Shown here: positions 47,992 through 63,495 of the stretch, in pieces
How the letters are laid out: each line of letters begins with the position of its first letter
Position numbering within the stretch: position 1 is the stretch's first letter
Assembly: GCF_054482525.1 (NCBI RefSeq)
Contig: NZ_CM137006.1
Strand: one strand, 5' to 3'
DNA length: 64,000 nt
Notes under the pieces: model-generated
What the model saw: the letters and a program-made list of their open reading frames with translations, nothing else
What the model was told of the DNA's origin: nothing
The model's database searches: none
Translations under genes and position numbers: made by a program

Positions 47992-48040
47992 AAATACCTC
48001 TCTTGGTTGCAGTGCGGCGCGCGTGGCGCCGCGGTGGTGG

Positions 48041-48922: not shown

Positions 48923-49740
48923 ACGTACATATCCTGTTTACGTGCCCAGTCAGGGCGTTTAATAATTTCCACTCCGCCCCATTCATCGTTGATGCGGCAT
49001 TCGTGATAGGTATTCAGATCCCGGCGGAACAGAGCGTGCCCGGCATCGACATCCGGCGCATCCAGCTCGAACACGCGTACCGGATACCGACCACAATCAA
49101 TGCTTTCGCTCACGGCAAGAAAGAAAAAACCATGTGGCTGACCAGTAACCCTCATTGCGCCTTCGCGGTACATTGCGTCCTGCACGTGGTAGCGGAACTC
49201 CTCGATGTGGCGTGCAAAACGGTCCATATCTGTAACCTTTTTCACGTCGACGATCACGTTGTGCTCTTTCAGCCATTTGTCTGGACGAATGCGGCACAAC
49301 TCACCAGTCTCTTCATCGTTCCAGTACATTGATGCTTCGCAGTAACCAGGTGCTTCCAGCATCCAGCGTGCCGCCGGGTGAGCCATTGCGCTATCACGCA
49401 TCAGCTCCAGTTTCCGCCACTGCTCGGCATCAAGTACCGTAATCCCCATATCCGCCACATCACGAAGAAATGCCTCTTCGTCAGCTTTACCTTGTTTCGT
49501 CCGACGATCGAATTTCGGCGAAACAATGAAGCGTTTGTCGAACTCTCCAGGCTCCAGAAGCAGACAGTGCAATGCGGTTCCCATATCCAGTGCAGACTTT
49601 TTCTCTTCGTCTTCTGGTGCTGCCTGAACCCATTTAAGAAGCGCCGGATTCTTGGCAACCATGTCCAGTTGCGACTTACTCACGCCGTCCCCGGCGTGGT
49701 AGTCTTCGTTGCTGATGTCGAAATAAATTCCCGGCTTCAT
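48919..49740 (-). CDS. RecE-like / exodeoxyribonuclease VIII-family PD-(D/E)XK exonuclease
   Basis: 273 aa; N-terminus YHAG…SKSQLD typical of prophage exodeoxyribonuclease VIII-like proteins; translationally coupled to Bet gene. Confidence 0.7.
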   Translation of the reverse strand: MKPGIYFDISNEDYHAGDGVSKSQLDMVAKNPALLKWVQAAPEDEEKKSALDMGTALHCLLLEPGEFDKRFIVSPKFDRRTKQGKADEEAFLRDVADMGITVLDAEQWRKLELMRDSAMAHPAARWMLEAPGYCEASMYWNDEETGELCRIRPDKWLKEHNVIVDVKKVTDMDRFARHIEEFRYHVQDAMYREGAMRVTGQPHGFFFLAVSESIDCGRYPVRVFELDAPDVDAGHALFRRDLNTYHECRINDEWGGVEIIKRPDWARKQDMYV

Positions 49741-50051
49741 GCCGCGTCCCTCTGCCCATCAAGCTGATCAGCCAGATCCCAGCGGGCGATAATTGCCATT
49801 GCCTCGCGCCGGTAGGAATCCATCAGTTCTTCGAACTCAGGGCTGTCTTTAGCTGCTTCCAGCACTTCCTGGCGAACTCCTTTGCCTGTTACAACGTCGA
49901 AAGTTGAGGCCAGTTGATGAAGCCGGATGCTCTCAATCAGTTCAACTTGTCGGTCATATAGCTGTTCTGACAGGCGGTAGTCCTTGTCGAATGCCAGCAT
50001 GATTTTTTGAAGATTTTTCTGCTGATTAACGTTCATTATCAGCCCTCCCAT
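49737..50051 (-). CDS. Hypothetical early-left operon protein (Gam/Kil position)
   Basis: 104-aa ORF (likely start MNVNQQ at 50036) directly upstream of exo. Confidence 0.45.
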   Translation of the reverse strand: MGGLIMNVNQQKNLQKIMLAFDKDYRLSEQLYDRQVELIESIRLHQLASTFDVVTGKGVRQEVLEAAKDSPEFEELMDSYRREAMAIIARWDLADQLDGQRDAA

Positions 50052-50190
50052 ATCTCGTTATCGTTGGCCACATCGCGAGCTTCTTTGCTGACGAAAGCCC
50101 ACTTAATACCTTCCTGTAAGGTGCGGAACTTCCAGCTCATGAATCCGCATGCAGTAACGCAGTACCAACCGTTGATGATTTTCCACTGCA
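50041..50190 (-). CDS. Small protein, possibly CIII-like
   Basis: 49-aa ORF MQWKIINGWYCVTACGF… with GAGG RBS; weak resemblance to lambda CIII N-terminus (MQYAIAGWPVAGC); not in ORF track (under 60 aa). Confidence 0.35.
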
Positions 50191-50297
50191 TAACTTGTTA
50201 CCTCGGTTTGTTACCGTTGAGGTAATGATTATGCGTATTTGGTTTGGTGTCAATAGATATGAGTTAAAAAAATTACCCACAAGGTAATCTTGCTGGC

Positions 50298-50325
50298 AAT
50301 AAAAAAGCCGCCATGAGGCGGCTTA
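50298..50325 (-). terminator. Rho-independent terminator after repressor gene
   Basis: On minus strand: aagccgcctcatggcggctt hairpin followed by ttttttatt. Confidence 0.65.
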
Positions 50326-50344
50326 CTTGCTGAAAACTATAGTT

Positions 50345-50929
50345 TTATTGTTTGCTTTTTTCGTTCTGGTTGATGACAAATTCAATGTAACTTTCGATCT
50401 TTGCTTTCTCGGTTTCGGGTAACAATGCGTAGCGCGAGCGGTCATAGTTGATAGTCGCAGGGTCGTGCGGGTGAATCAGTAATTCATAGCCGTGACGCCC
50501 GAATGCGGATGCAACATTCTCCAGGGTGGAAATGGAAACGCTGACCTCATTGTTTAACAGGCGGCTGATTGTCACCTGGGCGACGCCGGATGCGCGGTGA
50601 AGTTTTCCCTGTGTTGAAAGGTCGCGGCTTTCGCTCATCCAGCGTTCCAGGTTGTGAGCCGCCAGCTGACCAATGTCGCTTGGGCCGACAGGCTGAAAAC
50701 CTTCCTGAGAAAGCGAGCGATCGATATCAAGCCAGTTACGGGGTTTATTGGCGGCAGCTTCAATTTTTCGCGCAACCTGGTCGCCGATAACCTTCTTACC
50801 AAGAGCCCAGCGGTTTACCAGATTTGCCTGAGTTCCAAGTTTTTCTGCCATCCGCGTCTGAACACCATTGAATTCACGGTCGATCAAGTCGTTGAGATTT
50901 TGCCTGCGGACGTCCTGGATACTTTTCAT
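50345..50929 (-). CDS. CI-like prophage repressor with two HTH segments, no S24 peptidase domain
   Basis: 194 aa; HTH-like segments (TRMAEKLGTQANLVNRW and GVAQVTISRLLNNE); divergent from Cro-like gene; no Ala-Gly/Ser-Lys autocleavage motifs seen. Confidence 0.7.
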   Translation of the reverse strand: MKSIQDVRRQNLNDLIDREFNGVQTRMAEKLGTQANLVNRWALGKKVIGDQVARKIEAAANKPRNWLDIDRSLSQEGFQPVGPSDIGQLAAHNLERWMSESRDLSTQGKLHRASGVAQVTISRLLNNEVSVSISTLENVASAFGRHGYELLIHPHDPATINYDRSRYALLPETEKAKIESYIEFVINQNEKSKQ

Positions 50930-51083
50930 TTTCTGGAAAATCGCCTCATATATGAATCAGTAGATGATTCAATTTAAAGCAATATTACCCAACAGGTAAA
51001 TGCACCCCATAGGTAACTATCCTTGATTTTTGTTACCTTATGGGTGAATATTTATTATCTGAAATAAATATCAGGCAATAGCT
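50930..51083. promoter_or_regulatory. Immunity-region divergent promoter/operator (PRM/PR equivalent)
   Basis: Contains TTACCCAACAGGTAA (50985-50999) and near-copy TTACCTTATGGGTGA (51033-51047). Confidence 0.7.
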
Positions 51084-51314
51084 ATGAGCGATAACGGACA
51101 TTTCGATTTCAAAAAGCACTGGCTTGCACTTACTCCGGATGAGCGTGAAGCCTTCGCACAGGAAGCCGGAACGACGAGTCACTATATACAGACTCACTTA
51201 ACAGGTAAGCGCAAAATGCCAGGTAAGGTATTGATGAATGGGCTTTTTAAAGCCTGTAAAACAAGACAATGGCTGCGCTCAAAAGCAGAACTGGCATACT
51301 TCTTCTACTCATGA
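51084..51314 (+). CDS. Cro/CII-like HTH regulator
   Basis: 76-aa ORF divergent from repressor, followed by terminator. Confidence 0.55.
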   Translation: MSDNGHFDFKKHWLALTPDEREAFAQEAGTTSHYIQTHLTGKRKMPGKVLMNGLFKACKTRQWLRSKAELAYFFYS

Positions 51315-51336
51315 TATCCAGCCACAACCCTCTGTA

Positions 51337-51360
51337 GACCGCCACCCGGCGGTCTTTTCA
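51337..51360 (+). terminator. Rho-independent terminator (tR1-like) after cro-like gene
   Basis: gaccgccacccggcggtc hairpin followed by ttttca. Confidence 0.6.
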
Positions 51361-51462
51361 TATCTATTCGTACCTCAAAGGTAATAAAAAACCAAATCTG
51401 GTTGATCAAATTTTCCAATTGTGCAAAATAGCCAATATCAATAACAAAAAGGGGCGGAAAAA

Positions 51463-51675
51463 TTGAAGATAGTAACCAGAATGGAGGCCGCAAAAGCCGG
51501 GTTAAATCGCTATTTCACAGGAAAGCGGTGCCGTCACGGCCATCTCTCTGAAAGGTATGTTCTGAACGGAACATGTGTTGAATGTGCAATGAATAGCGCC
51601 AACCGCCATCGTAATGAATTTGCTTGTGCACTAAAGAGTGCAAGAGGGGAAACCTATGGCAAGCAGCTGGATTAA
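51463..51675 (+). CDS. Small Cys/His-rich (zinc-binding?) phage protein
   Basis: 70 aa; C-x-H-G-H…C-x2-C pattern; 3' end overlaps O-like gene. Confidence 0.45.
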   Translation: MKIVTRMEAAKAGLNRYFTGKRCRHGHLSERYVLNGTCVECAMNSANRHRNEFACALKSARGETYGKQLD

Positions 51676-52486
51676 GGTTGAAGTTATCACTCCTGATAAA
51701 CCTGAAATTTTTCAGATAGCAGAAATTCTGGGTATTGATCCAGATGCTGTTCTTGGAAAGCTGGTTCGTATATGGGCATGGGCTGACCAGCAAACAATAG
51801 ACGGTAACGCTGGCAGCGTTACAAAAGGAGTACTTGATAGACTCGCTTTTATTACAGGATTTGCTGACGCCCTCATTAGCGTCGGATGGCTTGCTTATCA
51901 TGACGGCAAACTAATTCTTCCAAACTTTGAGCGACACAATGGAGAATCATCGAAAAAACGTGCACTTACGAATAGAAGAGTGGCAGAGCATCGAAAACGA
52001 GTAACGCAAAAAGTAACGCCAACAGCGTTACAAAAGGAGTTACCAGAGGAAGAGGAAGAGGAAGATATATATAAAACCCCACACATAGCGCACGTGCGCG
52101 AGGGTGCTCCGACCAGTGAAGCGAACAGTACGCCGTTGCAGGTGGCAGAACCTGAATTTCTGGATGGCCTGAGTGAACCCATCGGGAAATTTCCGATGAC
52201 AGATGGCTGGCTACCGTCGCCAGATTTTCGGCGGCGTGCTGCGCTGTGGGGAACGGCCCTGCCGGAACCGGAATTTACACCTGCTGAACTTGCTGCATTC
52301 CGGGATTACTGGATGGCTGAGGGCAAAGTGTTCACGCAGGTTCAGTGGGAACAAAAATTCGCCAGGCACGTAAATCATATCAGGGGAAAATCAAAAAATG
52401 CCGGGAAAAGCGATGAGCTTGACTGGAATAACACTGACTGGATAGAAGGGGTGTGGGATGAAATCAACTCCAGAACTTCTCAATGA
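51656..52486 (+). CDS. Replication initiator (O-like) with DnaT-like C-terminal domain
   Basis: ORF 51638..52486 (start at MASSWIKVEV assumed); internal iterons; acidic EEEEEED linker; followed by P-like gene. Confidence 0.7.
   Translation: MASSWIKVEVITPDKPEIFQIAEILGIDPDAVLGKLVRIWAWADQQTIDGNAGSVTKGVLDRLAFITGFADALISVGWLAYHDGKLILPNFERHNGESSKKRALTNRRVAEHRKRVTQKVTPTALQKELPEEEEEEDIYKTPHIAHVREGAPTSEANSTPLQVAEPEFLDGLSEPIGKFPMTDGWLPSPDFRRRAALWGTALPEPEFTPAELAAFRDYWMAEGKVFTQVQWEQKFARHVNHIRGKSKNAGKSDELDWNNTDWIEGVWDEINSRTSQ
51800..52080. promoter_or_regulatory. Putative phage replication origin (iterons + AT-rich segment inside O-like gene)
   Basis: Repeated GTAACGC/GCGTTAC motifs; 17-bp exact repeat agcgttacaaaaggagt at ~51813 and ~52024; then gaagaggaagaggaagatatatataaaa. 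Confidence 0.55.
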
Positions 52487-53234
52487 GTACGATCGCTTAC
52501 GTGAGCATGGTGTTGCTGTGCATGAAGAGCGGCGTGACAGCAATGGCAAAAAGGAGCAGGTTGCTAGAATTTTCAATGAACTATTTGTCCAGTTACAGGC
52601 TGCATTTCCTGCAAGCGTTTCGACCATAAGGGAGCAGAACAAACTTAATGAATTCCGTAAGCAATGGATGCTTGCGTTTCTGGAGAATGGGATCACTACA
52701 ATGGAACAGGTTAACGCTGGTATGCGCCACGCCCGCGCCAGTGAATCTCCGTTCTGGCCGTCGCCAGGGCAATTCATCAAGTGGTGCAAAGACAGCAAGA
52801 TGGTTCTTGGCGTCACCATTGACGATGTGATGGCGGAGTTTCACCGGTACAGCAAGGAAAAAAGTTTATATCCTGGTGGTCCCGAAAGATTCCCGTGGCG
52901 ACATCCGGTTATGTACTGGGTCGTATGTGATACCCGCCGTGCAATGTATCAGCGCCAGCTTAGCGAGATTGAGGTTGAGAAACACGCGCGCAGGCTGCTC
53001 GATGATTGGGCGAAAAAGGTGGCTTCCGGACAGCAGATACCCGATCCGGTGATCAGCATACAGGCAAAGCCAGAACCCATGAGTACGCCTCCTGACACTG
53101 GGAGAGACGTTTACCATCCACCAGGGCGAAGTTTCGGGTGCATGCCTAACGCCGCCACCCTGGGGGGAATAACACCGGCGCAGTGGCTGATAGAGGAATA
53201 CAGGCGGGGAAAGGCGGCAGGATTTATCAAGTAA
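52458..53234 (+). CDS. Replication protein P-like helicase loader
   Basis: 258 aa; strong similarity to lambda P as I recall it (…FPASV…REQNKLNEFRKQWMLAFLENGITTMEQVNAGMR…). Confidence 0.85.
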   Translation: MKSTPELLNEYDRLREHGVAVHEERRDSNGKKEQVARIFNELFVQLQAAFPASVSTIREQNKLNEFRKQWMLAFLENGITTMEQVNAGMRHARASESPFWPSPGQFIKWCKDSKMVLGVTIDDVMAEFHRYSKEKSLYPGGPERFPWRHPVMYWVVCDTRRAMYQRQLSEIEVEKHARRLLDDWAKKVASGQQIPDPVISIQAKPEPMSTPPDTGRDVYHPPGRSFGCMPNAATLGGITPAQWLIEEYRRGKAAGFIK

Positions 53235-53351
53235 TACCAGCGCGATAGCGCATTTTTTTACGCCTACATGATTACCTGTTGGGTAATAAAATGTTCTAAT
53301 CTCTATTGATTTCATGTCTTATGTGGTTTTTAATTACCTAAGGGGTAAATC

Positions 53352-53696
53352 ATGAGAAAACAGATACAGGCTCTTGGTCGACTCAAAACAGGCCAAATGA
53401 ACAAAACAGAATCTGCGTATTGCCAGCACCTTGAGCTGCGTAAACGTGCAGGAGAAATCGTCTGGTATCGATTTGAGGGTATCAAGCTGCGGTTAGCTGA
53501 CAACACGTTCTATACGCCCGATTTTGCTGTGATGCTCGCCACCGGCGAGATGGAACTGCACGAAGTGAAAGGTTTCTGGACCGACGACGCCAGGGTGAAA
53601 ACCAAAGTCGCCGCAGATCAGTATCCGTTCCGAATCATCGGGGTAACGGTTAAACCAAAGAAAGCAGGTGGTGGCTGGAACATCGAAGAGTTCTGA
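53352..53696 (+). CDS. Small PD-(D/E)XK-motif protein (DUF1064-like)
   Basis: 114 aa; YTPDF … ELHEVKG resembles PD…(D/E)xK. Confidence 0.5.
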   Translation: MRKQIQALGRLKTGQMNKTESAYCQHLELRKRAGEIVWYRFEGIKLRLADNTFYTPDFAVMLATGEMELHEVKGFWTDDARVKTKVAADQYPFRIIGVTVKPKKAGGGWNIEEF

Positions 53697-53757
53697 AGCG
53701 ACGATCTTTTTAGTTATCAATGTAATCAATAAGTTATGTGGATAAGCGAGGGTAAAG

Positions 53758-54276
53758 ATGGAAAGTAATATCAAAGGGTTAGTTGCCGCCGGGCATGAGA
53801 TGGCTTCGGAACTGAAAGCAGAATGTGGTGCCGTTGATATGCGCAGTGTGGCAAAGCTGATCAGCGATTTGGCAACGCAACTGGAAGTGCAACTGGTGCG
53901 TGCTAATGCGCTGGCGGCGGAGAATGAGCTGGCTCGTAAGGCAGTTCAGGCATTCTGCGATGTTGTTGGCGACAACACCGAGGTTATCGCTGAGGTGGTT
54001 GGGCGAGATGGCGTTCTGGTTATTTTGGAGGCCATGAAGGCAACAGGAAATATGCCAGCCACCGATGCTTTCCTGGCTGAAGTGCGGGCGCAGGGCGTGG
54101 ATGCTGCTATAGAAGCTGCAAAAAATCTGGTGGCCCAAGAATATGAGTATAAGGATTTCAAAGCGGCGCAGAGTGATTGCTGTATGCACCCTGGTTCAGA
54201 TCTGGTAGGGAAGGTTGAAATGACTGAGTGGTTAGTTGACTTTGCTGCCCAGCTTCGCAAAGGAGGCAACCAGTGA
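53758..54276 (+). CDS. ead/Ea22-like phage protein
   Basis: 172-aa acidic coiled-coil-like ORF in nin-like region. Confidence 0.45.
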   Translation: MESNIKGLVAAGHEMASELKAECGAVDMRSVAKLISDLATQLEVQLVRANALAAENELARKAVQAFCDVVGDNTEVIAEVVGRDGVLVILEAMKATGNMPATDAFLAEVRAQGVDAAIEAAKNLVAQEYEYKDFKAAQSDCCMHPGSDLVGKVEMTEWLVDFAAQLRKGGNQ

Positions 54277-54761
54277 GCGAAATTAATTACCAGGCACTGC
54301 GTGAGGCGGCGGAACGTGCAATTCCAGCAATGGAACGCCTGTTAATGTTGCCAGCTGATGATGATTTGTTAAGTGAACAGGAACTTAAAGATTACGGTGT
54401 GGATATTGATGCGCTCAACGCCTTCAAATTTCTGGCCGGACCAGAAACCGTGCTGGCACTACTGGATGAACGGGAAAGGAACCAGCAATACATCAAATCC
54501 CGCGACCAGGAGAACGAGGATATTGCGCTAACGGTAGGGAAGTTGCGCGTTGAGCTTGAGGCAGAAAAACAGCGGGCAAAGGATCTGTTTATGGAAAATG
54601 CTCGGCTTAAGTCAGGTATAGCCGGTCTGATACACCTCGGTATTCGATATGCAGATGTTGATGTCATGAAAATTGCTGGAGATGCCCAGCTTTCTACCCC
54701 ATGCACTGACAGCATCATAAACAGCATTGCAACAGGCATTCGCATCAACGGAGGTGAGTAG
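54273..54761 (+). CDS. ead/Ea22-like phage protein
   Basis: 162 aa; MSEINYQALREAAE… N-terminus typical of Ea22-like proteins; overlaps previous gene stop. Confidence 0.5.
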   Translation: MSEINYQALREAAERAIPAMERLLMLPADDDLLSEQELKDYGVDIDALNAFKFLAGPETVLALLDERERNQQYIKSRDQENEDIALTVGKLRVELEAEKQRAKDLFMENARLKSGIAGLIHLGIRYADVDVMKIAGDAQLSTPCTDSIINSIATGIRINGGE

Positions 54762-54841
54762 TGCGTGTGGCATGTATTGGCTTGTTACCGTACCCGACTC
54801 GTTTTTGGGCTTCTGCGCTAATTGCAAAGCCACAGGTCCTG

Positions 54842-54937
54842 ATGGCTGACAACATCACCCCAGCACCAAAGCGCCGCCATACCGGTATTGCAGCGGCACG
54901 ACGAGCAGCAAAGAGACGCAGGAGAGCAAAGCGATGA
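54842..54937 (+). CDS. Arg-rich micro-ORF (A)
   Basis: MADNITPAPKRRHTGIAAARRAAKRRRRAKR; its TGA overlaps the next ATG (ATGA); start could be GTG at 54761. Confidence 0.35.
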   Translation: MADNITPAPKRRHTGIAAARRAAKRRRRAKR

Positions 54938-55110
54938 AAAACCGTAAGGCAAAACGACTTTTTTTACAGCGACCTGTGCGTGTGGTGGAGCTGGTTATTA
55001 GCAACCATAAGATAGCGGTACTCCATCCATTTGGTCAGGTGGCTTTTGCCGCAAAGCGTAAGCCTACTGCGTCACAGAACAGGCGGAAGAAAGGGTACGC
55101 AGTAAGATGA
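54934..55110 (+). CDS. Basic micro-protein (B), paralogous N-terminus MKNRKAK
   Basis: 58 aa; ATGA-coupled to next ORF. Confidence 0.4.
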   Translation: MKNRKAKRLFLQRPVRVVELVISNHKIAVLHPFGQVAFAAKRKPTASQNRRKKGYAVR

Positions 55111-55295
55111 AAAACCGTAAAGCAAAGATTCTGTTAGTTCGTAGAAACGCTCCTGGCGTCTGGCAGTGGGTGAGACTCAGCAACCGACGGATGGGGTTGA
55201 TGAAATATTACGGGATGATGGATTGTGGTTTTTGCAAAAAGCCCAGCGCGGCGCAAAACCGCTGGAAAAACCATTTGCGCACTAAAGGAGAGTGA
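55107..55295 (+). CDS. Basic micro-protein (C), paralogous N-terminus MKNRKAK, Cys pair
   Basis: 62-aa ORF in track; same MKNRKAK start as ORF B. Confidence 0.5.
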   Translation: MKNRKAKILLVRRNAPGVWQWVRLSNRRMGLMKYYGMMDCGFCKKPSAAQNRWKNHLRTKGE

Positions 55296-55296
55296 T

Positions 55297-55812
55297 ATGG
55301 CGTTAACACACCGCGAACTCTGTCAGATTGCGTACAAGTTCCTTAAGCGCAACGGGTTCAAGGTTTGTTTTCATGACCGCTTTATAGCTGTAACCAGTAC
55401 CGGAGAACAGCCAGATGCTATGGGGTTCAGAAATTCAGCATCATGCCTGATAGAGGCGAAGTGTTCTCGTGCTGATTTGTTGGCAGATAGAAAAAAGCGT
55501 TTTCGTAAAAATCCGTCTCTTGGAATGGGCGACTGGCGATTCTTTATTAGTGAGCCGGGAATTATTTCAATTGAGGATTTACCACCTGGCTGGGGATTAC
55601 TTCACGTTGTTAACGGAAGAGTACGGAAAGTACATGGGTGGCCCAAGGGTAATTGCTGTTGGGGTAACCCTGAAGATAAACCTTTTATTGGGAATAAGCA
55701 GGTTGAATGCGATTACATGTTATCTGCATTAAGGCGCATGGAGTTGAGAGGGCACCTTAATGAAATATATGACGGTGTAATTGTTAATAAGAAAGAAGGA
55801 AACGCGGCATGA
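55297..55812 (+). CDS. Hypothetical protein with PD-(D/E)XK-like motif
   Basis: ORF 55225..55812, start at MALTHREL assumed (RBS ggag); motif …QPDAMGF…CLIEAKCS…. Confidence 0.5.
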   Translation: MALTHRELCQIAYKFLKRNGFKVCFHDRFIAVTSTGEQPDAMGFRNSASCLIEAKCSRADLLADRKKRFRKNPSLGMGDWRFFISEPGIISIEDLPPGWGLLHVVNGRVRKVHGWPKGNCCWGNPEDKPFIGNKQVECDYMLSALRRMELRGHLNEIYDGVIVNKKEGNAA

Positions 55813-56204
55813 TCACTATTACCAATAAGAAACAGTATCCCAGCGAGCAATATCTTAATGAGCTGATCACCAACATAGAGTTTGCTGCAAGGGCACCAGT
55901 TGAAGTCGTGAGAGCAATGGCAGCAGAGCTACAGAAGCGGCGCGAAGCTGATAGCGCAGAACCAGTTGCTTATATTTTCAAACATCCGGCCGGGAAATTA
56001 TTCTGGGCTTTAACGGATGAAAGTAATAAAGAGCAAGCGGACGTTATTCCTGTTTATGCCGCCCCTCCAGTGCCAGTAGTACCTGAAGAAAAACCAATGC
56101 CTAACCCTCTTAAAATGTACGCGGTCGATGCTGTTGCCGCTATTGCAGAGGTGAGAGGCTGGAATGCCTGCCGCGCCGCCATGCTTCAGGGTAAAGGAGA
56201 GTGA
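55809..56204 (+). CDS. Hypothetical phage protein
   Basis: 131 aa, overlapping start/stop with neighbours. Confidence 0.45.
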   Translation: MITITNKKQYPSEQYLNELITNIEFAARAPVEVVRAMAAELQKRREADSAEPVAYIFKHPAGKLFWALTDESNKEQADVIPVYAAPPVPVVPEEKPMPNPLKMYAVDAVAAIAEVRGWNACRAAMLQGKGE

Positions 56205-56205
56205 T

Positions 56206-56415
56206 ATGGCTATTGCCGCAAGTTACACCATGCATCTCTATTGTGACTGCCGCCAGTGTACGGAAGGTGTATATCCAGTGCCAGACTTCGGTGAGTATAT
56301 CGGTACGTCATGGTCTGGTTGTGCAAAAGAGGCCCGTAAAGACGGGTGGCGAATAAGCGCCGACAAAACACGTGCTTTTGCGCCCGGGCATAAAGTTTTG
56401 AGGATTAACACATGA
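56206..56415 (+). CDS. Hypothetical Cys-rich small phage protein
   Basis: 69 aa from ATG at 56206 (ORF track 56164..56415); CDC…C…C pattern. Confidence 0.4.
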   Translation: MAIAASYTMHLYCDCRQCTEGVYPVPDFGEYIGTSWSGCAKEARKDGWRISADKTRAFAPGHKVLRINT

Positions 56416-57215
56416 CCACTATTACCAAAGAACGTATTGAATTGTTCATTAAAAATCCGCTTGAAAACGGGCTTACTCGTGGCGAACAAATGGAACTGGC
56501 ACGAATTGCACTGGCATCACTGGAACGCGAACAGATTCGCCACGAGCATGCCAAATGGTCTGACTCCACATTTGGCTGCGTTGGCCCCATTGGTCCACTG
56601 AAACACCTCTCAAAAGAGGCACTGGAAGCCGCAGCCGAACCAGACGATCTTAGCGAGTGGGCTGATATGCAGTTTCTGTTGTGGGATGCACAGCGCCGTG
56701 CTGGCATCAGCGATGCTGAAATTAACGTTGCTATGGAAGATAAATTGAAGATCAACATGGAGCGCCAGTGGCCTGAGCCAAAAGATGGTGAGCCTCGCTT
56801 GCACATTAAAGAACCCGGCAACTCTCCGGTAATTCCGGATGGTTTATCCACGGTATGCGCTGAGGCTTATCAGGTTGTAGGAGTTATGGCAGATGCGCTT
56901 GGTGTATTCGGTGATGCAGCAGTACAGAACGTTCTGGATAACCTGTCACAGCAAAAACTTGTTCACAGAGATGTGCTGCCGTTCTCGCTTCCGGCAACTC
57001 CGGATGGTTGGATAAGCTGTAGTGATCTAATGCCGGAAGACACCAAAATGTTACTGGCATTTAGTCAAGGTGAAATCGTGGCAGCATATTGGAACTGGGT
57101 TGTAAATCCAATTGATTACAAAAAATATAGAGCTTTCACGTATTTATCAGGAAATATCTTGGATGACGTAACCCACTGGATGCCGCTACCAGAACCGCCG
57201 CAGGAGGTGAAGTGA
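56412..57215 (+). CDS. DUF550/DUF551-like nin-region protein
   Basis: 267 aa; C-terminal …WISCSDLMPED…HWMPLPEPP typical of DUF551 as I recall it. Confidence 0.5.
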   Translation: MTTITKERIELFIKNPLENGLTRGEQMELARIALASLEREQIRHEHAKWSDSTFGCVGPIGPLKHLSKEALEAAAEPDDLSEWADMQFLLWDAQRRAGISDAEINVAMEDKLKINMERQWPEPKDGEPRLHIKEPGNSPVIPDGLSTVCAEAYQVVGVMADALGVFGDAAVQNVLDNLSQQKLVHRDVLPFSLPATPDGWISCSDLMPEDTKMLLAFSQGEIVAAYWNWVVNPIDYKKYRAFTYLSGNILDDVTHWMPLPEPPQEVK

Positions 57216-57565
57216 TGGACTATTCACAGTTAAGTGATTTTGAAATTAACAGAATGGTAGGAGACATAATTTTTAAAGGCCTTTGGGCGTGTAAACCGGA
57301 AACATCAGGGAATAACACCAACAAATGGTATTACGGAAATACTGATACAACTTTTGAGCCATTAAACCCTTTACCTGACTACTGCAATAATCCATCGGAT
57401 GCATGGCCTATTATTGTTGATAATAAAATCAGTCTAACCTGCCACCAATCTCGCGGTGAGTGGTCAGCTGTTTTTAATGTCGAGAACATTTGCTTTCATG
57501 CGAATAATCCACTCCGAGCCGCCATGATTGTATTTCTCATGATGCAGGAAAATCAGAATGGCTAA
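57212..57565 (+). CDS. NinX-like protein
   Basis: 117 aa; N-terminus MDYSQLSDFEIN resembles NinX/DUF2591 family. Confidence 0.5.
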   Translation: MMDYSQLSDFEINRMVGDIIFKGLWACKPETSGNNTNKWYYGNTDTTFEPLNPLPDYCNNPSDAWPIIVDNKISLTCHQSRGEWSAVFNVENICFHANNPLRAAMIVFLMMQENQNG

Positions 57566-57896
57566 ATCAGCAGCAGAGCGCAAAGCCGCTCAGAGAGCCA
57601 GACAAGCTGCATCTGGTGTGCGTAAGCTGGAGATTGTGCTTGATGCTCAGGAAATTGAAATGCTTGAGCGTAACTGTGCCGCACGTCGCCCCGGGCGTGC
57701 GCCTTACGAATTTGGTGAGTATATAGCGTTACTGATCCGCCAGGATGATGCACGCGTGCGCGGGCGTATAAAATCGATCAGTAGAAAACGTTGCGGTAAG
57801 TGCGGCGAGAGAGTTCCCGTTAATTCATGCCCGTGTAATGGTGACTCGCAATGCTGGGTGACTAAAGGCTGGTATGAAACGAAATTAATAGTGTGA
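57558..57896 (+). CDS. Small basic protein with C-terminal Cys cluster (possible regulator)
   Basis: 112 aa; CGKCGERVPVNSCPCNGDSQC zinc-ribbon-like; last gene before terminator and terminase. Confidence 0.45.
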   Translation: MAKSAAERKAAQRARQAASGVRKLEIVLDAQEIEMLERNCAARRPGRAPYEFGEYIALLIRQDDARVRGRIKSISRKRCGKCGERVPVNSCPCNGDSQCWVTKGWYETKLIV

Positions 57897-57945
57897 CATG
57901 TCACGAGTAGATTATGCATGATGAATTTGACGGGTTTTGAATACT

Positions 57946-57971
57946 GCCGCCAACTATGGCGGCTTTATTTT
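57946..57971 (+). terminator. Rho-independent terminator upstream of terminase small subunit
   Basis: gccgccaactatggcggc hairpin followed by tttatttt. Confidence 0.6.
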
Positions 57972-58014
57972 GCATGGTACTATTACCACAACGGTAACTA
58001 TTACCACGGTGGTT

Positions 58015-58611
58015 ATGATGCCTGCTGAACCTAAAACCTATAAACGCAAATCAACGCAATTTAAGCCACTAACAGCAATGCAGGAGGCTTATTGCCAGTC
58101 ATACATCAAAACGCCTGAAAACCAGACTCAGGCAGCGATTAACGCAGGATTCTCCCCAAATACAGCGGCAGTTAAAGCCAGTGTCATGATGCGCGATGAA
58201 CGCATTCAGAAACGGATTGCCGAGTTGATGGAGGAGCGCAACAAACGAATGCGCGTCAGTGCTGATTACGTTCTCATGCGCCTGGTGGAGATCGACCAGA
58301 TGGACGTTATCGACATCCTCAACGACGATGGGAGCCTTAAACCAATCCGTGAGTGGCCGAAAATCTGGCGCACTACGCTTAGTGGCTTTGATCTGTCATC
58401 GACCATCATGAACATGAACGAGGATTCGATAGAGACAATCCTCAAAAAAATTAAATGGCCTGACAAGGTGAAGAACCTTGAGCTGATTGGTAAGCATGTT
58501 GATGTCAATGCGTTCAAAGAACGTCTGGATGTTAATGTGAATGTGACAATTGCTGATCGCATAGCGGCAGCCAGGAAGAGACTGAAAGAACGTCAGGATG
58601 GCAATCAGTGA
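58015..58611 (+). CDS. Terminase small subunit
   Basis: ORF 57937..58611; start placed after terminator at MMPAEPK; sequence resembles small-terminase proteins; directly precedes large subunit. Confidence 0.7.
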   Translation: MMPAEPKTYKRKSTQFKPLTAMQEAYCQSYIKTPENQTQAAINAGFSPNTAAVKASVMMRDERIQKRIAELMEERNKRMRVSADYVLMRLVEIDQMDVIDILNDDGSLKPIREWPKIWRTTLSGFDLSSTIMNMNEDSIETILKKIKWPDKVKNLELIGKHVDVNAFKERLDVNVNVTIADRIAAARKRLKERQDGNQ

Positions 58612-60083
58612 CAGATACAGCGTTATCTCCTGAAGAGCAGTTAATTGAGGATATTGCAGGGTTCACTCACGATCCGCTTGGCTATGCCCTCTATGCGTTC
58701 CCGTGGGGGGAAGAGGGGACTGAACTGGCACATGCTACCGGCCCACGTCAGTGGCAGGCCGATGCGTTCCGAGAGATACGTGATCACCTGCAGAATCCAG
58801 AGACGCGTTATCAGCCGCTTATGCTGGCACGTGCTTCTGGTCACGGTATTGGTAAATCCGCATTCATCTCAATGCTCATCAACTGGGGCATGTCCACTTG
58901 CGAGGATTGTAAGGTCGTGGTGACCGCCAACACCGACAACCAGCTACGAACGAAGACCTGGCCGGAAATTATCAAGTGGTCGAACCTTGCTATCACGAAA
59001 GACTGGTTTACCTGTACCGCTACCGCGATGTACAGCAATGACCCTGGGCACGACAAGCGGTGGCGGGCTGACGCAATACCCTGGTCTGAGCACAACACTG
59101 AGGCATTCGCCGGACTACACAACGAGCGCAAACGCATCATCGTGGTGTTTGATGAAGCGTCGAACATTGCGGATCTGGTGTGGGAAGTTGCCGAGGGTGC
59201 GCTTACGGACGAAGACACTGAGATTATTTGGGTGGCGTTCGGAAACCCTACACGTAACACCGGGCGTTTTCGCGAATGTTTCCGCAAATATAAACACCGC
59301 TGGAAAACTGCGCAGATTGACAGCCGGACGGTGGAAGGCACTAACAAACAGCAGTTGCAGAAATGGGTTGATGACTACGGGGAAGACAGCGACTTCGTTA
59401 AAATCCGTGTGCGTGGCATATTCCCTGATGCATCTGAATTGCAGTTTATCCCTACCGGTCTTACTGACGAGGCAATGAAACGGGTGGTAACCGCTGCGCA
59501 GGTTGCACATGCTCCGGTGATAATCGGCGTTGACCCGGCATACTCCGGCGTTGATGACGCTGTGATATACCTGCGGCAGGGGCTACACAGTAAGGTGCTG
59601 TGGACTGGCAACAAGACTACCGACGATCTGATTATGGCGAAGCGTATCGCTGACTTTGAAGACCAGTATCAGGCTGACGCGGTGTTCATCGACTTCGGTT
59701 ACGGAACCGGTTTGAAGTCAATCGGTGACGGCTGGGGTCGTACATGGCAACTTGTTCCGTTCGGTGGCGCGTCTACTGACCCGCAGATGCTCAACAAGCG
59801 TGGGGAGATGTTCAACTCATGCAAGACATGGCTGAGGCTCGGTGGCATGCTGGATGACCAGGAAACAGCGGACGACCTGTCGGCAGCAGAGTACAAAGTT
59901 CGAGTGGACGGTAAAATCGTTATCGAACCGAAGGAAGATATCAAAGAGCGACTTGGGCGTTCTCCTGGTAAAGGCGATGCGCTACTGCTGACGTTTGCGT
60001 TCCCTGTGTCGAAGCGTCTGCGAATTCCCGGTCAGCAGAACCAGCAAGGCAAGGCCATCACAGATTACGATCCCTATGCTTAA
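58608..60083 (+). CDS. Terminase large subunit (ATPase + nuclease)
   Basis: 491 aa; Walker A-like GHGIGKS; overlaps small subunit stop. Confidence 0.85.
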   Translation: MTDTALSPEEQLIEDIAGFTHDPLGYALYAFPWGEEGTELAHATGPRQWQADAFREIRDHLQNPETRYQPLMLARASGHGIGKSAFISMLINWGMSTCEDCKVVVTANTDNQLRTKTWPEIIKWSNLAITKDWFTCTATAMYSNDPGHDKRWRADAIPWSEHNTEAFAGLHNERKRIIVVFDEASNIADLVWEVAEGALTDEDTEIIWVAFGNPTRNTGRFRECFRKYKHRWKTAQIDSRTVEGTNKQQLQKWVDDYGEDSDFVKIRVRGIFPDASELQFIPTGLTDEAMKRVVTAAQVAHAPVIIGVDPAYSGVDDAVIYLRQGLHSKVLWTGNKTTDDLIMAKRIADFEDQYQADAVFIDFGYGTGLKSIGDGWGRTWQLVPFGGASTDPQMLNKRGEMFNSCKTWLRLGGMLDDQETADDLSAAEYKVRVDGKIVIEPKEDIKERLGRSPGKGDALLLTFAFPVSKRLRIPGQQNQQGKAITDYDPYA

Positions 60084-60129
60084 TCCGCTGGTGGGGATAA
60101 TGTCGTTGATATCCTCTGGTGAGGATAAA

Positions 60130-60156
60130 ACAAAGCCAGCTCATAGGCTGGCTGTT
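60130..60156 (-). terminator. Terminator of reverse-strand moron transcript
   Basis: On minus strand: agccagcctatgagctggct hairpin followed by ttgtttt. Confidence 0.5.
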
Positions 60157-60173
60157 TGTGACATGTCACAGAG

Positions 60174-60596
60174 CTAGAAAATAATTTCATCAAATGCAGC
60201 ATTTATTGCCTTTGCTTCGCTAATGGCGCCTTGTTTATCGACAATAGCTTTTTTACCAAGCACCTCGGCAAGGCACTGTAGCTTCATGTTGTATAAGTGT
60301 TCGCTCATGTAATCATTATCACTTTTTGCTTTAGCGCAAACAGAGCGAGAAATATCAAACACATCGCCTTTTTCCATTTCAGAACGTTGTGCTGTTATCC
60401 AGTCATGGAACGTAACGCTAGTACCATGGTCTTCGCTAAGAGTTAACCCGGTCAGTCCCTCACTCTGAATTACTTCGTAATGCATTTCATTACCAGCAAA
60501 AACGCCATAAAAAACGCAGTCTTCAGCCTGAACGATACGAGAATATTTTAATGGCCATTCATTTAGATACTTAGCCAACATATCAATTGTTTTCAT
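60174..60596 (-). CDS. Hypothetical 140-aa protein (reverse-oriented moron)
   Basis: Opposite strand to flanking terminase and portal genes; no recognisable motif; own terminator. Confidence 0.55.
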   Translation of the reverse strand: MKTIDMLAKYLNEWPLKYSRIVQAEDCVFYGVFAGNEMHYEVIQSEGLTGLTLSEDHGTSVTFHDWITAQRSEMEKGDVFDISRSVCAKAKSDNDYMSEHLYNMKLQCLAEVLGKKAIVDKQGAISEAKAINAAFDEIIF

Positions 60597-60794
60597 GATC
60601 TCACCTTAAAAAAATGCCCGGCGAACCGGGCGAACTGGAAGCAATGAGTTATGCCTTCCGTGGCTGTACGGGTTTACAGCATGAAGTCATCGCAATGGCG
60701 TCCTGCTGTAAAAAGGGCGGTGATAGTCCTTCAAGGGAAACCATCACCGCCAAGCACCTGGAACTTCTGGCATCACGGTCCTTAGGCGTGATTC

Positions 60795-60871
60795 TGGCGC
60801 GGCATGCAGGATTCGAACCTGCGACCAACCGCTTAGAAGGCGGTTGCTCTGTCCAACTGAGCTAATGCCAC
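60795..60871 (-). tRNA. tRNA-Arg (anticodon UCU), phage-encoded
   Basis: Hand-folded cloverleaf: acceptor GUGGCAU/AUGCCGC, D-arm GCUCAGUUGGACAGAGC, anticodon stem ACCGC/GCGGU with loop CUUCUAA, T-arm CGCAGGUUCGAAUCCUGC, 3' GCCA encoded. Confidence 0.85.
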
Positions 60872-61298
60872 AACGCTGAGAGCACTTAGCCTGTTAAGGC
60901 GCCACACTTTGTCGCGGCTCCATAAATGCTCTCATCGTTGTACCCTCGTCTCTTCCGAGGTGTCACACCGAATCGCCGGGATGGTGAATCCCCGTGCGCG
61001 GAATAAAACCGCTCGACTTGCACATTCCGGCTACCTGGTTCGTTTGCCCGAGCAAGGGAGGGTGCCCCTTAAACGTATCCAGACCGCTATCGGCGCATGT
61101 GCCATACGCCGTACTGCTCAAAATAAAAGCTCACCCCACCTGTTCAATTTAACGACAAGCCAGTCAGATTAGTAACTGGAGTGAATTCTTTGGTTACCTG
61201 AAAGGTAATAATTCGTGCGTTAAATGTCAACTGTCTACGATAAATAAATCATATGTGGTTAAATTGGTAATAATTTAATTGCGTACGGAGTCATTGAT
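60872..61298. promoter_or_regulatory. ~430-bp non-coding region upstream of portal; likely promoters for tRNA/moron (leftward) and portal operon (rightward)
   Basis: No credible ORF; contains TTACCTGAAAGGTAA at 61204-61218 and AT-rich -10-like sequences. Confidence 0.45.
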
Positions 61299-61505
61299 AT
61301 GTGCATGGGTAGCTCACCATCAGTGCCTGCAACACCAGAAGTTCAGGCAGCACCACAGGAGCAGGATGCCGCCGTTGTTGATGCCCGCGACGAAGAAACT
61401 CGTCGCCGTCGCGCTGCTGCTGGTCGTAGTTCTACGCTGCTTACCGGTTCTCAGGGCGACACATCAACCGCTAATACCAGCGGTAAAACGCTGCTTGGTC
61501 AGTAA
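61299..61505 (+). CDS. Small Ala/Gln/Arg-rich protein preceding portal
   Basis: 68 aa; RBS context ggagtcattga-ATG nearly identical to that of portal gene. Confidence 0.5.
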   Translation: MCMGSSPSVPATPEVQAAPQEQDAAVVDARDEETRRRRAAAGRSSTLLTGSQGDTSTANTSGKTLLGQ

Positions 61506-61519
61506 CCGGAGTCATTGAA

Positions 61520-63199
61520 ATGGCGGAAACAACTAAAGAGCGATTGAACAAACAGTTCGCACAACTTGAAAGCGAGCGTCAGTCGTTCGAGCCGCACTGG
61601 CGCGAGTTGAGTGATTACATCAACCCGCGTGGTTCCCGCTTTCTGACTTCTGAGGTCAACCGTAACGATCGGCGCAATACACGCATTATTGATTCGACCG
61701 GGACTATGGCGGCGCGCACTCTCGCCAGCGGCATGATGTCAGGCATCACAAGCCCCGCGCGTCCGTGGTTTCGCCTGGCTACGCCAGATCCTGAAATGAT
61801 GGATTATGGCCCTGTTAAGTTGTGGCTTGAGGCAGTTCAGAACCGCATGAACGATATGTTCAATAAGTCGAATCTCTACCAGTCTCTTCCGCAGTTATAC
61901 GGAAGCCTCGGCACATACAGCACTGGTGCAATGGCAGTGCTGGAGGATGACGAGGACATCATTCGCACAATGCCATTCCCGATAGGCAGTTACTACCTGG
62001 CTAACTCACCTCGTGGCAGTGTTGACACCTGTTTTCGCAAGTTCTCTATGACTGTTCGTCAGCTTGTTCAGGAGTTCGGGCTAAATAACGTCAGCGAATC
62101 CGTAAAAAGCATGTGGGAAAGCGGCACCTACGAGAAGTGGATCGAAGTGATGCATTCGGTTTACCCGAACATTGACCGCGATACATCGAAGCTGGATAGC
62201 AAGAACAAGCCATTCAAATCGGTTTATTACGAGGTTGGTGGAGATAACGACAAGTTGTTGCGTGAGTCCGGATTCGATGAGTTTCCAATTATGGCTCCGC
62301 GCTGGGAAGTTAACGGCGAAGATGTTTATGGATCATCATGCCCGGGTATGCTGGCGCTTGGACCTGTTAAGGCATTGCAGCTTCTCCAGAAGCGCAAGTC
62401 GCAGTTGATTGATAAAGCCACCAATCCGCCGATGGTTGCTCCGACTTCCCTCAAGAATCAGCGCGCCTCCCTTCTTCCTGGCGACATCACGTATATCGAT
62501 CAGATTACTGGTCAGGATGGCTTCAGGCCTGCTTATCTGGTTAACCCCAGTACAGCAGATTTGGTGGCAGACATTCAGGACACTCGTCAAATCATTAACA
62601 GCGCCTACTTTGTCGATCTGTTCATGATGTTGCAGAACATCAATACCCGCTCGATGCCTGTTGAAGCGGTGATCGAAATGAAAGAAGAAAAACTTCTGAT
62701 GTTGGGGCCGGTTCTGGAGCGTCTGAACGACGAATGTCTTAATCCTCTCATTGACCGCGCTTTCTCGATGATGGTGCGCAAAAACATGCTGCCGCCACCG
62801 CCTGACGCGATGGAAGGCATGCCCCTGAAGGTCGAATACATTTCCGTCATGGCTCAGGCGCAGAAGTCTATCGGCCTGTCCAGTCTGGCGTCCACGGTTA
62901 ACTTCATTGGTCAACTTGCGCAAGCGAAACCAGAAGCTCTCGACAAACTCAACGTTGATCAGGCGATCGATGCATTCGCTGATATGTCCGGAGTGTCTCC
63001 AACCGTCATTGTTCCGCAGGAACAGGTTGAGCAGGCTCGCCAGCAACGGGCACAGCAACAACAGCAGCAACAAATGATGGCGATGGGGATGGCGGCGGCA
63101 CAGGGGGCCAAGACGCTAAGCGAAGCTAAAACTTCGGATCCGAGTGTGTTGTCAGCTATGGCGAATGCAGTTAGTGGTCAGGGTGGGCAATCACAATGA
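61520..63199 (+). CDS. Portal protein
   Basis: 559 aa; follows terminase large subunit; C-terminal Gln/Ala-rich tail; portal-like size and position. Confidence 0.75.
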   Translation: MAETTKERLNKQFAQLESERQSFEPHWRELSDYINPRGSRFLTSEVNRNDRRNTRIIDSTGTMAARTLASGMMSGITSPARPWFRLATPDPEMMDYGPVKLWLEAVQNRMNDMFNKSNLYQSLPQLYGSLGTYSTGAMAVLEDDEDIIRTMPFPIGSYYLANSPRGSVDTCFRKFSMTVRQLVQEFGLNNVSESVKSMWESGTYEKWIEVMHSVYPNIDRDTSKLDSKNKPFKSVYYEVGGDNDKLLRESGFDEFPIMAPRWEVNGEDVYGSSCPGMLALGPVKALQLLQKRKSQLIDKATNPPMVAPTSLKNQRASLLPGDITYIDQITGQDGFRPAYLVNPSTADLVADIQDTRQIINSAYFVDLFMMLQNINTRSMPVEAVIEMKEEKLLMLGPVLERLNDECLNPLIDRAFSMMVRKNMLPPPPDAMEGMPLKVEYISVMAQAQKSIGLSSLASTVNFIGQLAQAKPEALDKLNVDQAIDAFADMSGVSPTVIVPQEQVEQARQQRAQQQQQQQMMAMGMAAAQGAKTLSEAKTSDPSVLSAMANAVSGQGGQSQ

Positions 63200-63492
63200 C
63201 AGATTACGAAGACGATCAACTGAAAGAAGAAAACGCCCGTAAGCAACGTGACATGGCGCAGCGTGAAATTGATGACATTCGCTTTGTCATGAGCAGTGAA
63301 CAGGGGCGTCGCGTTGTCTGGTCGGTGCTGGAGAAAGGCCGTGTGTTTTCCGCTATCTCACCGATGGACGCTATGGCAATGGCATTTAATGAGGGGCAAC
63401 GCAATCTGGCGCTGGAACTGTTTCAGCGCGTTATGGCGCATTGCCCTGAACAGTATTTGAAGATGGCCAAAGAGGCCAGTGAACAGGAGTGA
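63196..63492 (+). CDS. Hypothetical head-morphogenesis protein
   Basis: 98 aa, overlapping portal stop. Confidence 0.45.
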   Translation: MTDYEDDQLKEENARKQRDMAQREIDDIRFVMSSEQGRRVVWSVLEKGRVFSAISPMDAMAMAFNEGQRNLALELFQRVMAHCPEQYLKMAKEASEQE

Positions 63493-63495
63493 TCA

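Follow-up and report, generated by a model that had tools for sequence, protein, structure and literature searches.

Prophage context and repressor gene

The window analysed here (the whole 64-kb stretch of DNA) carries 45 kb of host DNA followed by part of a prophage (45039-64000). The prophage is a Uetakevirus of the epsilon15/phiV10 type inserted at guaA; the attL core ATTGAGTGGGAATGATT (45039-45055, plus strand), located at the 3' end of guaA and forming the left prophage end, matches the ZX5 att core exactly. From the report on ZX5, whose DNA is 98% identical, overexpression of the repressor shifts the phage towards lysogeny and alters phage gene transcription.

The prophage repressor gene rep (50345-50929, minus strand) encodes a full-length homologue of SPC32H Rep, the match to PDB 5D50 spanning residues 1-190 (E=3.5e-42). 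The protein is 99-100% identical to the repressors of phiV10 and HEMP4 and only 43% identical to epsilon15 Rep, and its N-terminal NLVNRW helix is invariant throughout the genus. Pfam found only HTH families in it and no peptidase S24 domain. In the published outline of the SPC32H Rep/Ant/LexA switch (PDB 5D50, 5D4Z), Rep is described as a tetramer that binds palindromic sites and is inactivated by an antirepressor, not cleaved by RecA; it is composed of N-terminal DNA-binding, middle dimerisation and C-terminal tetramerisation domains, with the pairs of dimerisation domains about 100 Å apart. The protein had been called a two-HTH repressor in a first-pass annotation of this DNA, but in the SPC32H structure the part read as a second HTH serves for dimerisation, and DNA is bound by the N-terminal domain only. 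A 2023 paper notes that how Rep represses has not been extensively characterised in structural terms. The related phage phiV10 has an Ant homologue that is 88% identical to SPC32H Ant, with a LexA box (CTGT-N8-ACAG) upstream of ant; in our prophage the corresponding region falls outside the window, past base 64000.

Census of the TTACC-N5-GGTAA palindrome

Scanning of the whole window for the 15-bp palindrome TTACC-N5-GGTAA revealed seven perfect copies against 0.05 expected, a number reached in 0 of 100 shuffles, and 13 copies with at most one mismatch against 1.1 expected. The perfect copies are located at 50211-50225, 50273-50287, 50985-50999, 53272-53286, 53334-53348, 57983-57997, and 61194-61208, and thus all fall within 50.2-61.2 kb. 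The recurrence of the motif and its chance expectation of well under one, both proposed in the first-pass annotation, are borne out, and the enrichment exceeds what had been noted there. Its perfect copies at 50211, 50273, 50985, and 53272 were correct, the last one was the right string placed at 61204-61218 instead of 61194-61208, and those at 53334-53348 and 57983-57997 had been overlooked. Likewise, its one-mismatch copies at 45189, 51033, and 51370 were correct, while 58001-58015 (one mismatch) and 51002-51016 (two mismatches) had been missed.

In the prophage part, all 11 copies with at most one mismatch (seven perfect, four with one mismatch) are intergenic, as had been stated for every copy; intergenic DNA makes up 10.5% of this part, which gives P ~2e-11. 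Two-mismatch copies behaved differently: 11 of the 12 in the prophage part fall within genes, where they are as frequent as in the host DNA, and the only non-coding one is the rep/cro-gap site 51002-51016. The 45 kb of host DNA contained no perfect copy and two one-mismatch copies, which is the chance level. Operons in the prophage contain many short junctions between genes, and the scan detected no copy in any of these.

Palindromes at predicted promoters

We then compared the palindromes with promoter-like hexamers, all promoter assignments being consensus matches. The leftward early promoter PL on the minus strand reads TTGACA (50253-48), a 17-bp spacer, and AATCAT (50230-25), and its -10 ends in a T with which the predicted OL proximal operator (50211-50225, perfect) begins; this operator lies over the PL start site. 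This register is the same in phiV10, epsilon15, SPC32H, Tyrion, and BUCT711. The predicted OL distal operator (50273-50287, perfect) is located about 20 bp upstream of the PL -35 and 62 bp centre-to-centre from its partner, a spacing found in five of six genomes and replaced by 63 bp in BUCT711.

The gap between rep and the cro-like gene holds three predicted OR operators. The first (50985-50999) is perfect; the second, GCACCccataGGTAA (51002-51016), has two mismatches and lies 17 bp from it, and its counterpart is perfect in epsilon15, SPC32H, and BUCT711 at the same 17-bp spacing; the third (51033-51047), with one mismatch, runs from the -35 into the spacer of the putative rightward promoter of the cro-like gene, TTGTTA (51030-35)-17-TATTAT (51053-58). 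The cro-like gene (51084-51314, plus strand) encodes a small HTH protein of phrog_35 (transcriptional repressor), in which the recognition region AGTTSHYIQ.HLT (G29-T40) is conserved, with variation at position 37 only (T/V). A one-mismatch copy, GTACCtcaaaGGTAA (51370-51384), follows the cro terminator (51336-55), and its G variant is kept in phiV10 and Tyrion.

After the replication genes, a conserved terminator-like hairpin (GCGC-gata-GCGC-T7) is found upstream of the distal palindrome at 53272-53286, a perfect copy whose half-sites are invariant in six genomes. The following promoter, TTGATT-17-TTTAAT (53306-53334, plus strand), is predicted to drive the 53352-53696 gene block and is conserved in 6/6 genomes. 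The proximal palindrome (53334-53348, perfect), 62 bp from its distal partner, shares its first base with the final T of the -10, and its loop contains the ribosome-binding site (Shine-Dalgarno) of the next gene. A similar arrangement was observed at terS, where an extended -10 promoter, TGgTACTAT (57975-57983, plus strand), comes directly after the terminator at 57946-63, and TGnTACTAT is kept in phiV10, Tyrion, and epsilon15. Here the first palindrome (57983-57997) is perfect, and the epsilon15 record lists its counterpart (positions 12-27) among the repressor sites; the second (58001-58015, one mismatch) lies 18 bp from the first and adjoins the terS start codon. The terS pair is present in four genomes; SPC32H has a single site, and the BUCT711 region was unreadable.

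The perfect copy at 61194-61208 lies between the tRNA gene and gp3/portal, and its epsilon15 counterpart (2931-47) is annotated as a repressor site. On the minus strand we found an invariant TTGACA (61230-25), 17 bp, and TACCTT (61207-02) within the palindrome, or, in an alternative leftward reading, TAGACA-18-AATTAT. Any plausible gp3/portal start is about 70-80 bp downstream of the palindrome. The site likely overlaps a conserved leftward promoter aimed at tRNA-Arg(UCU) (60795-60871, minus strand) and the moron gene (60174-60596, minus strand). The proposal that the repressor controls the late/packaging region is retained for the packaging genes; at this distance from gp3/portal, direct control of the structural operon from the 61.2-kb site is no more than a possibility. 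The single upstream sites (61194 and 51370, and the lysis and tailspike sites of relatives) overlap no obvious rightward promoter; therefore, simple occlusion does not explain them.

The copy TTACCCTAAAGGTAT (45189-45203), 43 bp upstream of int, has one mismatch, GGTAT, which is the same genus-wide. It is ambiguous, either part of a cluster of integrase arm-type sites or a Rep operator, because it is surrounded by cGGTAT, aGGTAT, and ATACCg repeats, and because the first repeat there (cGGTAT, in a 10-mer adjoining the 45189-type site with a one-base overlap) is an integrase site and not a repressor site in the epsilon15 record.

Conservation in relatives

Relatives from E. coli, Salmonella, Enterobacter, and Klebsiella share the motif together with its positions and spacings, with conservation in six genomes whose Rep proteins are only 43-78% identical. 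The alignments showed invariant half-sites with a variable N5 spacer and flanks, pairs spaced by 62 bp both at PL and at the post-replication promoter, an OR pair with 17-18 bp spacing in 6/6 genomes, and a conserved -10/operator register at PL, the post-replication promoter, and terS. The epsilon15 record (GenBank AY150271.2; Kropinski et al. 2007) contains the identical palindrome ATTACC-N5-GGTAAT together with a homologous repressor gene, and marks seven copies at homologous positions as 'repressor / lysogeny', an annotation that is a prediction and not an experiment. All seven read TTACC-N5-GGTAA; epsilon15 has 11 perfect copies in total, and those of the OR cluster and at the proximal post-replication position are without annotation in the record. 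Both phages have sites before terS, before gp3/portal, downstream of the replication genes, and around PL, where epsilon15 has three and our prophage two.

A second palindrome

A different conserved palindrome, AACCA-N4-TGGTT, is located at fixed distances (19.5, 40.5-43.5, or 52.5 bp) from the centres of the predicted Rep operators. It occupies the spacer of early promoters and, on a consensus reading, coincides with the weak -35 of the gp3, tailspike, and lysis promoters, which are late. One copy, AACCAAATCTGGTT (51390-51403), lies 19.5 bp after the 51370 copy. Another, AATCATATGTGGTT (61247-61260, plus strand), overlaps a half-operator, TGGTT-aaatt-GGTAA (61256-70), whose centre is 62 bp from the 61194 palindrome, and both elements (61247-61270) fall within a nearly invariant block of about 60 bp upstream of gp3. 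The upstream Rep sites at late promoters are found at about -62, -70, and -80 on consensus promoter readings, roughly one helical turn apart.

Discussion

We consider, with a probability of about 80%, that the TTACC-N5-GGTAA palindromes are operators of Rep. The earlier proposal of one regulator (50345-50929) with sites on several transcription units is the best reading, with the homology to SPC32H Rep, the epsilon15 annotation, and the overlap with promoter hexamers pointing the same way. The prophage would be organised in short transcription units, most of which end in a terminator and restart from their own sigma-70-type promoter, and Rep would occupy nearly all of these unit promoters. At PL, the post-replication promoter, and terS, the operator begins on the last -10 base and would therefore cover the start site, so that RNA polymerase is blocked. 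The partner operator is found 62 bp further upstream in the case of PL and the post-replication promoter, and at a distance of 17-18 bp in the case of OR and terS; these pairs match a tetramer with two pairs of DNA-binding domains, which might hold two palindromes at once, in a small loop or side by side. Rep, Ant, and LexA reportedly form the lytic switch of SPC32H. Induction may proceed as in that phage, with a LexA-controlled antirepressor dismantling the tetramer and all units being derepressed together.

Binding of the palindromes, or of a subset such as the OR cluster, by the cro-like protein instead of or alongside Rep is unlikely, though it is the alternative we take most seriously. 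Its membership of a repressor family, its genus-wide HTH region with one variable position, the three sites between rep and cro, and the precedent of lambda Cro and CI on common operators fit such a role. However, late genes would be silenced in lytic growth if Cro bound the promoters of terS, lysis, and tailspike, the epsilon15 curators assigned the palindromes to the repressor, and paired sites suit a tetramer with two DNA-binding-domain pairs. The cro-like protein, with its near-invariant recognition helix, might nevertheless share some sites. That some other factor (a late activator, terminase, host regulator, or integrase) binds the motif is very improbable: the GGTAT/ATACC repeats around the 45189 copy, the adjoining integrase 10-mer of epsilon15, and the location of the terS pair where packaging signals could be would agree with it, but the same motif stands at PL and OR of the immunity region, no perfect copy occurs in the 45 kb of host sequence, and it follows the Rep family across hosts. 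An action at the RNA level, as hairpins with a 5-bp stem and a 5-nt loop that serve, for instance, in translational control at ribosome-binding sites, could be imagined from the Shine-Dalgarno sequence in the 53334 loop and the position of the 58001 site beside the terS start codon. It is the least credible alternative, as the stem sequence is invariant and shows no covariation, conserved one-mismatch variants (TCACC, GTACC, GGTTA, GGTAT) break the stem and are uncompensated, the distal sites lie upstream of the -35 directly after terminators and would be mostly untranscribed, and an Rfam search gave no match.

The first-pass annotation had likened the sites to stoperators. In the Cluster A mycobacteriophages (L5 gp71 type), stoperators are asymmetric 13-mers that block elongation in short intergenic gaps in an orientation-dependent manner, and their monomeric repressor uses both an HTH and a stoperator domain for binding. 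Both systems have a single immunity repressor whose many sites are spread over the genome, the late gene region included; the scattering of the sites, and the location of the second terS site (+12 to +26) and of the proximal operators within transcribed leaders, would suit roadblocks to elongating RNA polymerase. In contrast, the prophage sites are perfect, symmetric 15-mers without orientation in place of asymmetric 13-mers following the direction of transcription; they are often paired, most coincide with promoter-like hexamers after terminators (consensus matches), and they are missing from short within-operon junctions. Moreover, Rep shares homology with SPC32H Rep, which is tetrameric and not a monomer. 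The likeness thus fails on the defining features; a chief role as roadblocks is improbable, and from their sequence context the palindromes are very probably promoter operators, not stoperators.

The immunity region resembles lambda OL/OR in that the divergent rep and cro-like genes are separated by an OR with three sites (50985, 51002, 51033) and the leftward early promoter has its own operators. It differs in that predicted operators also lie outside the immunity region (51370, 53272/53334, 57983/58001, 61194), OL consists of two sites 62 bp apart on either side of the promoter, and Rep has no RecA-stimulated self-cleaving domain (only HTH families in Pfam). Rco of pLS20, whose operators are 75 bp apart, also has an N-terminal DNA-binding and a C-terminal tetramerisation domain; the 62-bp pairs are compatible with a small loop as in Rco, and looping by Rep is what we infer from them, although Rco acts on direct-repeat arrays and the Rep sites are single palindromes. 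Further dispersed operators are known in the conserved inverted repeats of P1 C1 and phiC31.

We tentatively suggest, as a possibility short of an expectation, that promoters throughout the genus follow a two-part grammar, of which Rep operators are one part. Another regulator, acting on AACCA-N4-TGGTT, would turn early promoters off and late ones on, and the upstream Rep sites would loop to half-operators, silencing late promoters. The PerC-like activator (47334-47633) or the cro-like protein may be this regulator, and half-operators such as TGGTT-N5-GGTAA (61256-70) may be the loop partners. The palindrome is already annotated as a repressor-binding site in the epsilon15 GenBank record; the new details are the -10/operator register, the 62-bp and 17-18-bp partner spacings, the likely leftward promoter at 61.2 kb, and the second palindrome.

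Distribution of the palindrome in the window

We scanned the 64-kb window for the 15-bp palindrome TTACC-N5-GGTAA and found seven perfect copies, starting at 50211, 50273, 50985, 53272, 53334, 57983, and 61194, against a mean of 0.05 in shuffled sequences, none of which reached seven. With at most one mismatch allowed, 13 copies were present where 1.1 were expected. The first-pass annotation, which had put the chance expectation well under one, was right on this point and in every string that it listed; its last coordinate was 10 off (61194-61208, not 61204-61218), and it had overlooked four copies: two perfect ones (53334 and 57983), one with a single mismatch (58001), and one with two mismatches (51002), the last in the gap between the repressor gene (rep) and the cro-like gene. 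Placement was assessed with a gene model built for the prophage part (45039-64000), of which 10.5% is intergenic. All of the prophage copies with at most one mismatch were intergenic (11/11, P ~2e-11), as had been claimed, whereas 11 of the 12 two-mismatch copies lay in coding DNA at the density of host DNA, the remaining one being 51002. The 45 kb of host DNA in the window contained no perfect copy, so the comparison with coding and host DNA also came out in favor of the claim. The excess over shuffles, together with the intergenic placement, rules out a chance origin.

The prophage and its repressor

The prophage region shares 97-99.9% identity with HEMP4, ZX5, and TL-2011b, phages of the phiV10 type (genus Uetakevirus, epsilon15 group), and phiV10 itself matches over 62% of it. 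Among 5,426 complete E. coli genomes, 75 carried the prophage at a coverage of at least 80%. The end of guaA holds, at 45039-45055, the att core that was described for ZX5. The 194-residue repressor Rep (50345-50929, minus strand) aligned over its full length with the repressor of the Salmonella phage SPC32H (PDB 5D50, E = 3.5e-42), and a Pfam search returned HTH matches only, with no self-cleaving peptidase domain. According to papers citing the SPC32H work, that Rep is a tetramer on palindromic sites, is composed of N-terminal DNA-binding, middle dimerisation, and C-terminal tetramerisation domains, and is inactivated by the antirepressor Ant. The window's Rep had been described as a two-HTH repressor, but the "second HTH" corresponds to the middle dimerisation domain as these citing papers describe it.

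An Ant homologue is encoded in phiV10 (88% identical). A LexA-box-like sequence, CTGTATAAATACACAG, lies upstream of it (phiV10 20822-20837) and matches the SPC32H induction circuit; the prophage counterpart of this region is past the window end. Upstream of the rep start codon we found no obvious Shine-Dalgarno sequence (50930-50945, …gattttccagaaaATG), and no convincing sigma-70 promoter for rep was recognized by eye. The rep transcript may be leaderless or carry a very short leader.

Conservation and prior record of the probable operators

In a comparison of six genomes, whose hosts are E. coli, Salmonella, Enterobacter, and Klebsiella, the motif recurred in nine shared kinds of intergenic position. 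Pairs 62 bp apart are found at the leftward early promoter PL and behind the replication genes, and a cluster spaced at 17 bp fills the rep/cro gap (OR). The other positions are before the terminase gene terS (a pair 18 bp apart in four genomes), upstream of int with a GGTAT mismatch every time, upstream of the portal gene gp3, at ant/tailspike, at the lysis genes, and after cro. All 56 perfect copies were intergenic save three within doubtful ORF calls. One of these is in phiV10 terS (41-715), whose start is set upstream of the operator pair, while terS of epsilon15 and Tyrion starts directly after it; the other two are in Tyrion "gp39" (34059-34271), a call overlying the PL operators and an apparent annotation error. 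Both ORFs look mis-called. The Rep proteins are just 43-78% identical to that of the window; nonetheless, all of them share the N-terminal helix NLVNRW unchanged. When two of the intergenic regions were aligned, the half-sites proved invariant, with drift in the N5 spacer and flanks. In phiV10, the operator directly 3' of ant lies inside a perfect palindrome with 18-bp arms, GGAGTGCTTATATTTACC-tttgc-GGTAAATATAAGCACTCC (20484-20524), which would also make a strong hairpin.

The GenBank record of epsilon15 (AY150271.2) holds seven "protein_bind: repressor, lysogeny" features, all of which read (A)TTACC-N5-GGTAA(T). Three of them are located in the PL region, one follows the replication genes, and the others precede terS, gp3/portal, and the tailspike gene; these are the window's places except for the tailspike site, whose counterpart lies past the window end. 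Since palindrome and places are the same, the motif is a curated, though predicted, epsilon15 feature found again. The proposal that one regulator acts on several transcription units appears right in substance. The operators are not annotated in the phiV10, SPC32H, Tyrion, and BUCT711 records, the ZX5 paper tested its repressor through overexpression and left operators undefined, and a full-text literature search on TTACC/GGTAA and on Uetakevirus plus repressor returned nothing specific. The feature is already known for the phage genus: records on epsilon15 and SPC32H cover both the sites and the one-repressor principle, and no new biology comes from the window.

Geometry of predicted promoters and operators

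On the minus strand, the consensus PL promoter (TTGACA-17-AATCAT) shares its last base with the start of the proximal operator (50211). The promoter of the 53352-53696 gene block, after the replication genes (TTGATT-17-TTTAAT), is followed in the same register by operator 53334, and the terS promoter, with an extended -10 (TGgTACTAT), by operator 57983. This register is kept in every relative at PL and the post-replication promoter, and at terS in the relatives where it is readable, indicating that these operators cover the start sites. At PL and the post-replication promoter, the partner operator lies 62 bp upstream, which is about 20 bp past the -35; at OR and terS the spacing is 17-18 bp. 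Most units come after a terminator (50305-24, 51336-55, 57946-63, and a conserved GCGC hairpin at 53240-59).

We propose that Rep, as a tetramer whose DNA-binding domains form two pairs, would grip two palindromes together, either in a small promoter-spanning loop or side by side, and that each unit would be silenced separately. A 2023 structural paper describes the repression mechanism as still not well characterised. As for the suggested control of the late/packaging region, this geometry supports direct control of terS/terL well, but control of the portal operon from the 61.2-kb site is unproven.

On the minus strand at 61.2 kb, all six genomes have an invariant TTGACA (61230-25) separated by exactly 17 bp from a TACCTT that is part of the operator, and a promoter scan gave an alternative leftward promoter, TAGACA-18-AATTAT. 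Either predicted promoter would face left, to tRNA-Arg(UCU) (60795-60871, minus strand) and the moron (phrog_4846, 60174-60596, opposite strand), both between terL and gp3, and away from the portal gene. The tRNA and moron are apparently served by a conserved leftward promoter (61202-61230, minus strand) with its -10 within the Rep operator. Upstream of gp3, a block of some 60 bp (61232-61295, CTACG.TAAATAAATCATATGTGGTTAAATTGGTAATAATTTAATTGCGTACGGAG) hardly varies among the six genomes, which come from four host genera; the adjacent intergenic DNA is far less conserved. Any rightward gp3 promoter must sit within this block, which places the 61194 operator about 70-80 bp upstream of it and makes direct control of the structural operon plausible, not proven.

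A second motif at fixed distances from the operators

A second palindrome, AACCA-N4-TGGTT, was found in the window at 51390-51403, 61247-61260, and 53318-53328 (best copy AACCATATATGGTT), in phiV10 at 24736-24749, 20918-20931, 20539-20552, and 33132-33145, and in Tyrion at 26452-65, 34215-28, 35385-98, and 37308-21. Its distance from the operator centers is 19.5 bp at the early promoters, namely post-cro, PL, and post-replication, and at the latter two the motif falls between the -35 and the -10. The distance is 40.5-43.5 bp at ant, tailspike, and lysis and 52.5 bp at gp3. At gp3 its right half, with five further bases and GGTAA, forms a half-operator (TGGTT-N5-GGTAA) centered 62 bp from the 61194 site and located inside the near-invariant block. 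Copies within 60 bp of an operator made up five of six in phiV10 (binomial P 3e-7) and five of five in Tyrion (P 6e-8). Within the window by itself the motif does not reach significance, which comes only from the fixed operator distance across genomes. A second regulator may bind to it. One copy with two mismatches, AACGACATCTGGTT (46907-46920), is found within a coding part of the left operon, with no operator closer than 1.7 kb; phiV10 has the identical sequence (28588-28601), and the copy may be due to chance.

Alternative readings of the sites

That the palindromes act as RNA hairpins is unlikely and was rejected, because the stems lack covariation, no compensating change accompanies the conserved mismatches, the distal sites precede the promoters, and an Rfam search matched the tRNA only. 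The resemblance to stoperators suggested in the first-pass annotation is wrong. Stoperators are asymmetric, orientation-dependent 13-mers bound by a monomer, and these defining features are all absent here; the sole likeness is a single repressor with many dispersed sites. The cro-like protein (51084-51314, plus strand), whose recognition helix is near-invariant, may also bind the OR sites.

Two weaker copies stand apart. The 45189 copy is set among cGGTAT / aGGTAT / ATACCg repeats, and this cluster (45184-45216), just upstream of int, overlaps the one-mismatch palindrome. In the epsilon15 record the adjacent or equivalent 10-mer is an integrase site, and the palindrome there carries no repressor label; the 45189 copy may be either a repressor operator or an integrase site. 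The 51370 copy (GTACC) is kept in phiV10 and Tyrion, and BUCT711 has a mirrored GGTAT variant in its place; no convincing rightward sigma-70 promoter for it was found by eye after cro.

Significance

Judged from sequence comparison, the palindromes are probably, in substance, repressor operators at many transcription units, and their control of the portal operon is uncertain. Relatives of phiV10-type prophages convert serotypes, and some serve as reporter phages. Looping and late-gene control could be tested on concrete constructs built from the second motif and from the fixed geometry of promoters and operators. The sites show the route by which a widespread prophage type silences its whole genome through one repressor, so that inactivating Rep alone would be enough for induction.
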